From the IMG/VR virus record IMGVR_UViG_2563366825_000027, positions 1-15,180 of that record: a stretch of 15,180 nucleotides of DNA; one strand, given 5' to 3'. This document shows positions 1-3,000 of this stretch, piece after piece. Source of the DNA: a virus (lineage: Duplodnaviria; Heunggongvirae; Uroviricota; Caudoviricetes). The first letter of the stretch is position 1. The number at the start of each line of letters is the position of its first letter. The position numbers were made by a program.

Positions 1-3000
1 ACCCGCAAACCACACTTCCCTTTAAAACGCGTAACATACATTGCCTGCGTTTAACTTTCTTTGAACTCTTGCAGAAAAATGAGAATTCGTGAGTACGATC
101 ACTCAAAATCGCCTGGCAAAAATAAAATCACCCTATAGATGCACAAAAAACGGGCAAAACTACCTGGTTCGCAAAACTGCGTCTAAAGTTAAACCGGGAC
201 CTCGCGAGCAAGGGTGAGACGATGGCGCTTTACACAATTGGTGAAGTGGCGTTGCTTTGTGATATTAATCCTGTCACGTTACGCGCGTGACGCAACATTT
301 TTAAAAATCGACGAAGATCGTCCAGGAGCGCCGTTTTTCAAGGGTTGGATAGATGATTCGTTTACCATGTCGACGAACTTCGACGAATTTCGCCGATAAA
401 AAGTGTCCCATACATGCCCCATTGATGCCCCATAAACAATATCAGGAATTGACACTGGTTATCCATACAGACAAAAATAACACCTGTACATAACCACAGT
501 TACAGGAGGGTGTTATGCGTGTTGAGATCTGTATCGCTAAAGAAAAAATCAGCAAAATGCCAAAAGGTTCTGTTTCTGCCCTGCAGCAAGAAATGCTTCG
601 ACGTGTCAGTAAACGTTATGACGATGTGGACGTGATTGTCAGAGCCGCCAACAATGACAGTCTCACCATTTTAAGAGCTGTAGATAAAGAATCCGCGCAC
701 GAATTTGTTCAGGAAACACTGCAGGAAGCCTGGGAAACCGCTGACGACTGGTTTATTCGGTAAATCTTCTTTACGGGGAGTTAACTTACTCCCCATTTTT
801 TATTGCATGATAATTGCAGCAACGGCACAGAGTGTCACCACACCACCCAGCCACACAAACAGCATGAAGCACATTGCTCCCGCTGTATAACGTTTTCTCC
901 CGTACATACGGCATTTGTCTTTATTCATCATCTGCCCCTGAATCACATGAAGACGCTGCAGGTCCGGTAACACTGAATCACTCCGCACACGCAAGATGTT
1001 TCACGCTCACACCATACAGCCCGTTTTTCGCCATTCCCGTATACAGAAAGGTATTCACCGTCTTCGTGTGAATGCCCATTTCACTGGCAAGGCGACAGGG
1101 TCTCGACTGACGGTAGACATAACCAAACATCACCACCATCTCTGACATCGTCAGCGGACGGGCAACGCTGTTATACGTCCACACACCATTGCGTATGGCA
1201 TCACTTATCTGTTCGCCATCACGGAGTGATTCCGCACCCAGTTGCAGAAAATGTCGTCCCTGAAACATACAGCGCATCAGCCTGCCCAGTAAAACATCAC
1301 AGATTATCAGCCAGGATTCATCAAAGTCCGGGATATAACGGCGGTTCTCCGGCAGGAAAAACTCCCTCGCCAGTATCACACTGTGTTCCTTCAGCAACTG
1401 TTGCAGTCCATATTCCAGGTAGCGGTTCCTTGTGGCCAGAATTACCTTCATCGCAGCACCTTCCTGTTTTTATGCCCCATGAAAAAAAACGGCAGGCAAA
1501 ACTCCTGTGCCTGCCGTCATGCTTCATGTCACTGTCAGCAATTAAAACTCGAAGTTCACACCAACATTCCAGGAGGCATCGCCATCACTGAATGCCACGC
1601 CTGCTTTCGCTGCGGTCTGCTCGTTGAAGCGGTAACCCACACCCACCGCCAGTGCCTGCTGGTCGCTGTAACCACCAACCGCTGCCGTGGCGTTGAATTT
1701 ACCCACACTGTACGGCTGGAACAGACCAGTCAGGGCCGCAGACTGTGCTGCTGCACGCTTCATTTCCTTGTGGTTTTCATTAATCTGGCGCTGCTGGCTG
1801 TCCAGACGTGCTGAATGTTGCTGCAGCGTACGGGTATTGGCTGCAATCGCCTTGCTGTTTTTCTCAATGGATTGCGTGTTACGGGTGACACGGCCATCAA
1901 TGGCACCAACCGCAGCATCAATACGGTCAGTACGACCAGACAGGGCCACCAGACCATCGTTAACAGAAATGGTGTTCTTTGCACCTTCTGCACGGGTCAG
2001 GGTGCCGTCAGAACTCACACCAACAGTGGTGCGATCTTTGATCGATTTATCCAGATCAACGATAGCATCGCTTACACGCGCATTTTTTGGCGCTGTAACA
2101 TCATGTGTATAGCTGCCATCCTCTTCCTGATAAATGGTTGTATCTGCCTGAATGGCTGCAACTACATTTTTTACAGACTCTCGCTCCACTGAGCCTGTTT
2201 CATCAAGGGTAATGTTACCGTTAGCATCGATAGCAAAAGTTGTGTCTTTATTCAACCTATCTATATTGGTAACGATGCGGTTGTATTCCTGCAGAACACC
2301 AGGGCCATCTTTAGCTGCTGCGACAGCGGCATCTGAGCTACCGCCGGAACGGACAGCAGTAACATAGGCTGGCGCTGTGGTTGAAGTTATCTGTTTCGAG
2401 ATTTCTTCTTTTTTCTTAACTATTTCATCAATCTGATTTGCTGATAGATTTTTAATATTCTCAGCTGTCAATCTATTATCATCTACAGGATAAGATATAG
2501 AATTTAAATATATATTTTTTAATTCTTTCTCCATCTGTTTATATTTTGGCTGTTTTTTTATTTGTTCATCAATTAATTTAATCCCAGCATTAAACTCATC
2601 AATGTTGAAGGTCATAAAAGAGCCAATTTCAGTATTAATTGCAGGTATCACGGTCTCATTATTTTTATTAACAACAGATGCAATAATACCATTAACAACA
2701 ACTTTATATTGTCCATTATTAATAGTATAGGTCTCAGCAGCCATAGCTCCCGAACTCACCAGCAACAGTCCGGCAACAGCAGAAGAAAGAATAGTCTTAG
2801 AGAATTTTTTGTTCATCTGATATATCCTGTAATTTCTTTGTATACAAAAAAAGCAACCCTCTCAGACGCACTTCAGATACACTAAAGAAAATCTGATGAC
2901 TGGCCGCTTCCTGTCAGCTTATTCCAGGATTATTCGCAAAAATGAATATAAACTTTTTAGGAATTATCGTACTGTACAGTCGGTGATATCCGTCACCCCC

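Follow-up and report, generated by a model that had tools for sequence, protein, structure and literature searches.

The curli-regulator gene mlrA (yehV) of E. coli is a known integration target of lambdoid prophages, as the earlier note on this DNA states. The annotation of VT1-Sakai and the genome of EDL933 bear this out, as do published accounts (PMC8065619, PMC3874044, PMC5931665), and yehV is a listed insertion site of Stx phages (PMC8065619). VT1-Sakai (Sp15) and CP-933V both reside in yehV of E. coli O157:H7, CP-933V being the stx1 prophage of EDL933 (bioRxiv 10.1101/2022.08.08.503262). A prophage so placed disrupts the DNA-binding motif of MlrA and curtails the making of curli and biofilm; once it excises, native mlrA is restored (PMC3874044, PMC8065619, PMC7192596, PMC5931665); in non-O157 strains a prophage is less often found in mlrA (PMC3874044). 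A group associated with extraintestinal or clinical E. coli comprises the stx-negative lambdoid mlrA prophages of EC2 (NZ_CP058571) and JNEC-KY203 (NZ_AP045179), together with PhiR5_1 (PV340545), whose record is that of a complete phage genome, with E. coli C given as host.

The stretch of DNA analysed here, 15,180 nucleotides and referred to as the window, almost certainly starts in the E. coli chromosome and crosses the tail-side (attR) junction of a lambdoid prophage that sits in mlrA. (The junction on the tail/dinI side carries the name attR in the record of phage JLK-2012.) The prophage interrupts the host DNA at the same point as VT1-Sakai and CP-933V do, and the junction is an already known, ordinary and previously annotated prophage-host boundary. 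Its biology has been established for O157:H7 and other E. coli, and the value of the present analysis is one of annotation, not discovery. When positions 1-600 of the window were compared by megablast with 5426 complete E. coli genomes, every one of them gave a match, and in at least 469 (8.6%), EDL933 with its CP-933V included, the same junction was present, counted as such where the match covers at least 80% of those 600 positions. Over 1-573 the identity to EDL933 is 98.3%; the tail-side junction of EC2 is 100% identical over 1-600, and PhiR5_1 is 100% identical over 289-800. None of the complete genomes in the collection holds more than 79% of the window at one place, that figure being reached by JNEC-KY203, the best match, with EC2 at 73% (identity 94-97%).

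On the left, positions 1-289 are identical to intact mlrA loci at all 289 nucleotides and consist of the btsS-mlrA intergenic region and the first 68 nucleotides of mlrA. In the intact loci btsS is immediately to the left of what is here position 1, and the part upstream of the mlrA start codon (1-221, plus strand) presumably includes the mlrA promoter. Among the genomes listed with an uninterrupted gene (rows H4-H29), the match comprises exactly positions 1-289 (99-100% identity) and falls where an intact mlrA is annotated. The ATG at 222 opens 22 codons (222-287, plus strand) whose translation, MALYTIGEVALLCDINPVTLRA, is identical to MlrA residues 1-22 of the uninterrupted locus of strain FHI_NMBU_03, in agreement with the earlier attribution of these codons to the MerR-type helix-turn-helix of the MlrA N-terminus; in the Pfam MerR HTH model the peptide also aligns with positions 1-17 (E 9.6e-4, which falls below the gathering threshold, the peptide being so short). 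The TGA that follows at 288-290 had rightly been taken to stand in place of a tryptophan codon. It is the TGG of Trp23 with its third base exchanged, T288 and G289 being host-derived and A290 the first phage-specific base, and it is thus made by the junction itself. PGAP treats the same 66 nucleotides as an incomplete pseudogene in both EDL933 and EC2, and in the VT1-Sakai record the 5′ piece of mlrA is labelled ‘truncated protein of E. coli K12 YehV’. Intact MlrA has three Pfam domains, MerR_1 (4-72), MlrA_helical (81-155) and MlrA_C (162-238), and in the window there is no frame with the complete MerR HTH, MlrA_helical and MlrA_C together, only residues 1-22 and a stop.

A single base distinguishes this stop from the tryptophan codon, and in isolation the fragment could be a pseudogene of mlrA that arose by point mutation (TGG to TGA), or a MerR paralogue, in place of an insertion junction. 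That reading is refuted, to within a very small residue of doubt. The presence of btsS alongside shows that the locus is the native one and the gene mlrA itself, with its normal synteny, not an unrelated paralogue. In a base-by-base comparison position 290 is the first to differ from the intact locus, identity ends at 289/290 (within the interval 288-300 to which the attachment junction had been assigned) and ungapped identity over 290-400 falls to 31%, so that homology to the intact locus, far from continuing past 400, stops at 289. What lies beyond is phage DNA common to many phage records, and it resembles mlrA neither as nucleotide sequence nor as protein. The residual similarity that the earlier note saw continuing in another frame after the TGA is at chance level when set against shuffled sequence. 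The best of the three frames of 290-514, locally aligned with MlrA 23-243, pairs KGWIDD with KRWIDNG for a score of 28, which 62 of 500 shuffles also reached; for nucleotide local alignment past the junction against mlrA the observed score was reached by 269 of 300. The coordinates 214-399 previously attached to the MlrA-like fragment turn out to be those of a mechanical, GTG-started ORF that crosses the junction in a frame different from that of mlrA. This ORF has no Pfam match and is unannotated in EC2, EDL933 and the phage records, and ORFs at 279-455 (minus strand) and 353-493 (plus strand) likewise match no Pfam family and are unannotated in any related record.

With insertion as the explanation, the sequence at the joint can be followed to both ends of related prophages. 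When this junction is aligned with attB (intact mlrA) and with the EC2 junction on the int side, a 20-bp att core common to all three emerges, CCTGTCACGTTACGCGCGTG, at 270-289 (plus strand). It coincides exactly with the misc_recomb feature at 8051-8070 of AP000400, ‘attachment site of VT1-Sakai’, and the GenBank record of that phage annotates these very 20 bp, identical to those of the window, as the attachment site at both prophage ends. The matching core that the earlier note proposed seeking at the opposite end is indeed found in EC2, JNEC-KY203 and VT1-Sakai; within the 15-kb window there is no second copy and the core is present once. At the other end, in EC2 and VT1-Sakai, it lies between the stop codon of int and mlrA from codon 17 onward, and by their coordinates the two copies in EC2 are separated by 53,084 bp. 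In the prophages of EC2 and JNEC-KY203 this end reads xis, int and, last, the 3′ part of mlrA, which PGAP annotates as a 233-aa ‘MlrA’; the annotated start is an ATT codon that belongs to phage DNA. The far end of the present prophage is pictured from these relatives and VT1-Sakai, which are not the same strain. A contiguous attP might seem to be on record for phage vB_EcoS_phi330, but that record has the 20-bp core twice in tandem, which is what pasting a prophage end to end gives, and because of this it is not independent evidence. On excision the attB joint would be expected to read ...CGCGCGTGGCAGAGG... and the attP joint ...TTAATCCCTGTCACGTTACGCGCGTGACGCAACATT....

Tyrosine-recombinase cores usually consist of inverted half-sites around a short spacer. 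A candidate for this arrangement occupies 271-293, with a half-site CTGTCACG (271-278), an overlap TTACGCG (279-285) and an inverted half-site CGTGACGC (286-293), the last reading CGTGGCAG in attB. The half-sites form an imperfect palindrome and the 7-bp spacer is within the 6-8 bp of such overlaps, though as a sequence pattern only; strand exchange, we infer, would take place within these 7 bp. One might also ask whether the insertion gave rise to an intrinsic terminator here, formed by the core inverted repeat and its T-run. Nothing supports a dedicated terminator of this kind: the hairpin (-9.8 kcal/mol) is ordinary in comparison with shuffles (z = -1.24), and the version of it in intact mlrA is even more stable.

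From 290 to 514 (plus strand) runs the att arm on the tail/dinI side, near-identical in CP-933V of EDL933, VT1-Sakai, JLK-2012 and PhiR5_1; judged by Pfam and the related records it contains no credible ORF. The att module is common to VT1-Sakai, the records of Stx1a-converting phages and the EDL933 junction, and over a longer stretch that takes in the dinI-like gene (262-763) the window is 86.9% identical to VT1-Sakai. Three phased repeats, GTGTCCCAT, ATGCCCCAT and ATGCCCCAT, start at 403, 414 and 425 with 11-bp spacing (403-433, plus strand). They correspond to a 24-nt direct repeat of the motif AAAGTGTCCCATGTATGCCCCATAA of the int-side arm, where there are two copies against the three on the tail side. 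They are good candidates for arm-type binding sites of the integrase. The motif is invariant in five phages, one of which, Stx2_EH2201, has another att site, and that phage keeps it at the int-side arm as well; conservation of the int-side copy is confounded by its overlap with the int coding sequence. Three direct copies of a different sequence, TCGACGAAnnTCG, are at 308-320, 370-382 and 380-392 (308-392, plus strand), conserved in related phages with single substitutions, and are possibly sites for accessory recombination proteins. The cognate integrase, taken from the related genome EC2, has the Pfam domains Arm-DNA-bind_2 and Phage_integrase and is 98% identical to that of VT1-Sakai.

Comparison with Stx2_EH2201 (LC567829), a Stx2 phage integrated elsewhere, separates the parts of the module. 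Its dinI-side arm is the same from TGACGCAAC on and has the same arm motif; at the core it keeps GTCAC...TGACGC but changes the bases between, TTTAACTGCA against GTTACGCGCG, and its host target differs. Its integrase is 82% identical overall to the mlrA type, yet the first 99 residues, with the arm-binding domain, differ at just two positions, and the divergence is in the core-binding and catalytic regions.

Parallels to lambda are of layout. As in lambda attP and attB there is a short core of identity with inverted half-sites around a 7-bp spacer; putative arm motifs are repeated on both arms, here as two plus three copies; and the integrase has an N-terminal arm-binding domain with xis adjacent, as seen in relatives. 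The binding sites and cleavage positions likened to those of lambda would be so by analogy. The sequences are unrelated, and the lambda integration target is intergenic, whereas the target here is inside a coding region and the gene is inactivated.

We take the recombination of phage attP with the identical 20-bp sequence inside mlrA codons 17-23 to be the work of a lambda-type tyrosine integrase that has an arm-binding domain and is encoded at the far prophage end, outside the window. The product at this end is mlrA codons 1-22 fused to phage DNA, with TGG of Trp23 turned into TGA. The remaining 221 codons would lie at the far end of the element; in EC2 the distance is about 53 kb. With its MerR-type HTH (residues 4-72) split after residue 22, no functional MlrA would be expected. 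Because the phage arm brings a stop codon but nothing to replace the lost coding sequence, mlrA is inactivated, not preserved. The source strain is thus predicted to be without functional MlrA and, for as long as the prophage does not excise, to make less csgD-dependent curli and biofilm, the phenotype (lower csgD, curli and biofilm) being extrapolated from the O157:H7 literature. No tRNA gene that might serve as an alternative integration target is present in the window.

The proviso about excision relates to a further proposal, that the mlrA prophage is a selected, reversible regulatory switch (regulated gene integrity, or active lysogeny) whose excision restores mlrA, curli and biofilm. It fits with the splitting of a conserved domain where the gene might have been preserved, the phage arm giving a stop codon alone, and with the frequency of the junction, at least 8.6% of complete genomes. 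In addition mlrA has been listed as a case of regulated gene integrity, with its restoration by excision cited (PMC7192596), and spontaneous as well as induced excision regenerates unoccupied sites (PMC5931665). However, cured cells were rarely recovered, and induction repressed csgD instead of enhancing it (PMC5931665), while the window itself carries nothing on the regulation of excision. A selected switch seems to us possible but doubtful, and it is a refinement of integration in mlrA as the main explanation, not a replacement for it.

With the boundary between chromosome and prophage at 289/290, everything rightward is to be read as prophage cargo, and the content agrees with the orientation first proposed for the junction: btsS-mlrA DNA is on the left, and a dinI-like gene, a tail fibre gene and J, I, K and L are on the right. 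What begins at 290 is a lambdoid prophage, seen from its tail-side end. Over 262-800 the window matches 58 phage records, and the gene order right of the junction is that at the tail-side end of the mlrA prophages EC2, JNEC-KY203 and PhiR5_1. A promoter-like site, TTGACA-18-AAAAAT (449-478, plus strand), and a LexA SOS box, CTGTACATAACCACAG, with a perfect CTGT-N8-ACAG (484-499, plus strand), precede the dinI-like gene (515-763, plus strand; 82 aa; Pfam DinI, E 4.5e-16), and a terminator-like hairpin follows it at 775-794. Promoter, SOS box and gene are arranged in the same way in VT1-Sakai, whose record has ‘putative promoter’ and ‘putative SOS box’ at the equivalent positions, and the counterpart of the gene is annotated as DinI-like in EC2, EDL933 and phage records.

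Because the mlrA upstream region is intact and points into the prophage, and the dinI-like gene is on the same strand, stationary-phase read-through from the mlrA promoter across the junction might express this DinI-like RecA modulator apart from its LexA-controlled promoter. The gene starts 225 nt past the junction, with a weak hairpin alone intervening. We regard the proposal as a long shot; if true, it would couple host stationary-phase regulation to prophage stability.

The rest of the window (764-15180) is the remainder of the prophage late end, all on the minus strand and identified with Pfam, Rfam and synteny with EC2, JNEC-KY203 and PhiR5_1. Two hypothetical genes lie between the dinI-like gene and a YadA-anchor adhesin (1542-2816), after which come a DUF4376 protein (3296-3871), a tail fibre of 500 aa (3891-5393), hok/sok (5536-5822), J of 1155 aa (5874-9341), I (9684-10364), K (10262-10999), an ant-sar-arc-clpP-like insert (11054-13066), L (13123-13827) and an OmpC-like porin (14017-15180). 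The lambdoid tail genes have the expected order and orientation, with accessory genes inserted among them.

That these tail genes are all intact long ORFs (J, the tail fibre, L, K and I) bears on whether the element is a decayed, non-inducible remnant that kept its tail-side end and junction and had its far junction lost or rearranged. Pseudogenes do occur in related mlrA prophages (in EC2 a capsid frameshift and an IS1, in JNEC-KY203 a portal frameshift), J is frameshifted in EDL933, and the window holds just 15 kb of the element. Besides the intact ORFs, the fully conserved att arm with its repeats weighs against decay, as does the deposition of PhiR5_1, identical here over 289-800, as a complete phage genome. 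A remnant is accordingly considered unlikely.

Though the att module is shared, the cargo and tail region is mosaic and unlike that of VT1-Sakai and CP-933V. The window has its own set: the YadA-like adhesin, hok/sok in replacement of lom, an ant/sar/arc insert resembling immI of P22, and the OmpC-like porin. EDL933, in contrast, has lom and a different tail-fibre end. JNEC-KY203 shares with the window both the ant/arc/clpP-like insert and the ompC moron, and EC2 differs from it in being without the ant/arc insert and in having lom. One integration module is thus seen with stx1 in some lineages and here with adhesin, porin, hok/sok and an immI-like module. The earlier designation ‘Stx-type’ holds as a description of the integration module; the Q-to-lysis region, where stx would sit, is outside the window. 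In the prophages of EC2 and JNEC-KY203, both read in their entirety, no stx is annotated, and the Q-to-lysis region has instead a gene for a SASA-family esterase.

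Comparison of phages that use mlrA with those that have another chromosomal target is instructive with regard to how an attachment site changes. When two stretches of Stx2_EH2201 (LC567829; L007 340-360 and L011 405-560) are set against 262-520 of the window, the entire dinI-side arm (the prophage DNA between the att core and the dinI-like gene), the arm motif, a candidate integrase arm-type repeat, and the arm-binding domain of Int are common to both types of phage. What differs in Stx2_EH2201 is the approximately 10 bases between a conserved GTCAC and TGAC, together with the core-binding and catalytic regions of its Int (82% identity overall to that of the mlrA phages). 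At the level of sequence, the two types of phage are a tidy natural case of att-site retargeting.

Two database entries that contain the mlrA att core merit caution. In the ‘complete genome’ of phage vB_EcoS_phi330 (PV189401), the 20-bp att core, CCTGTCACGTTACGCGCGTG, is present twice in tandem (L009, about 1780-1830), which suggests that the record was assembled from joined prophage ends rather than from sequencing across a true attP. The other is outside the window, at the int-side junction of the related prophage in E. coli EC2 (NZ_CP058571; L004 8331-9032), where the product that PGAP assigns to the 3′ part of mlrA is an ‘HTH-type transcriptional regulator MlrA’ of 233 aa. When checked against the sequence, its start proved to be an ATT codon within phage DNA, 20 nt past the int stop, and the protein would be missing HTH residues 1-16; the annotation is probably an artefact driven by homology. 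Run-off transcription driving truncated distal MlrA proteins is mentioned in PMC5931665.

The gene content of the tail region varies among relatives. The gene at 1542-2816, which lies between the att end and the genes for the tail fibre, encodes a 424-aa protein that has a YadA-like membrane anchor at its C terminus and is putatively a trimeric autotransporter adhesin. This protein is variable: its EC2 counterpart has 415 aa, and that of phage PhiR5_1 (PV340545) has 357 aa. Flanked by the tail-fibre gene and J is a hok/sok-type toxin-antitoxin (5536-5822), with both the Hok/Gef-family ORF (5536-5676, E 2.4e-11) and the sok antitoxin RNA (5665-5822; RF01794, 59.6 bits, barely exceeding the gathering score of 59) on the minus strand; in EC2, EDL933 and PhiR5_1 this position is occupied by lom instead. 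An inserted P22 immI-like module (11054-13066) separates tail genes K and L, and comprises a Bro-N/P22AR antirepressor (11054-11968, minus strand) and, on the plus strand, sar antisense RNA (11970-12036; Rfam RF00262, 69.4 bits), an Arc-like ribbon-helix-helix protein (12258-12530) and a ClpP-like protease (12530-13066). The module is likewise present in the JNEC-KY203 prophage (NZ_AP045179), whereas in that of EC2 it is lacking and K adjoins L directly. Adjoining L within the tail module is a full-length gene for a 387-aa OmpC-like porin (14017-15180; Porin_1, E 1.8e-139), also found in the prophages of EC2 and JNEC-KY203, and its start codon is exactly the right end of the window.
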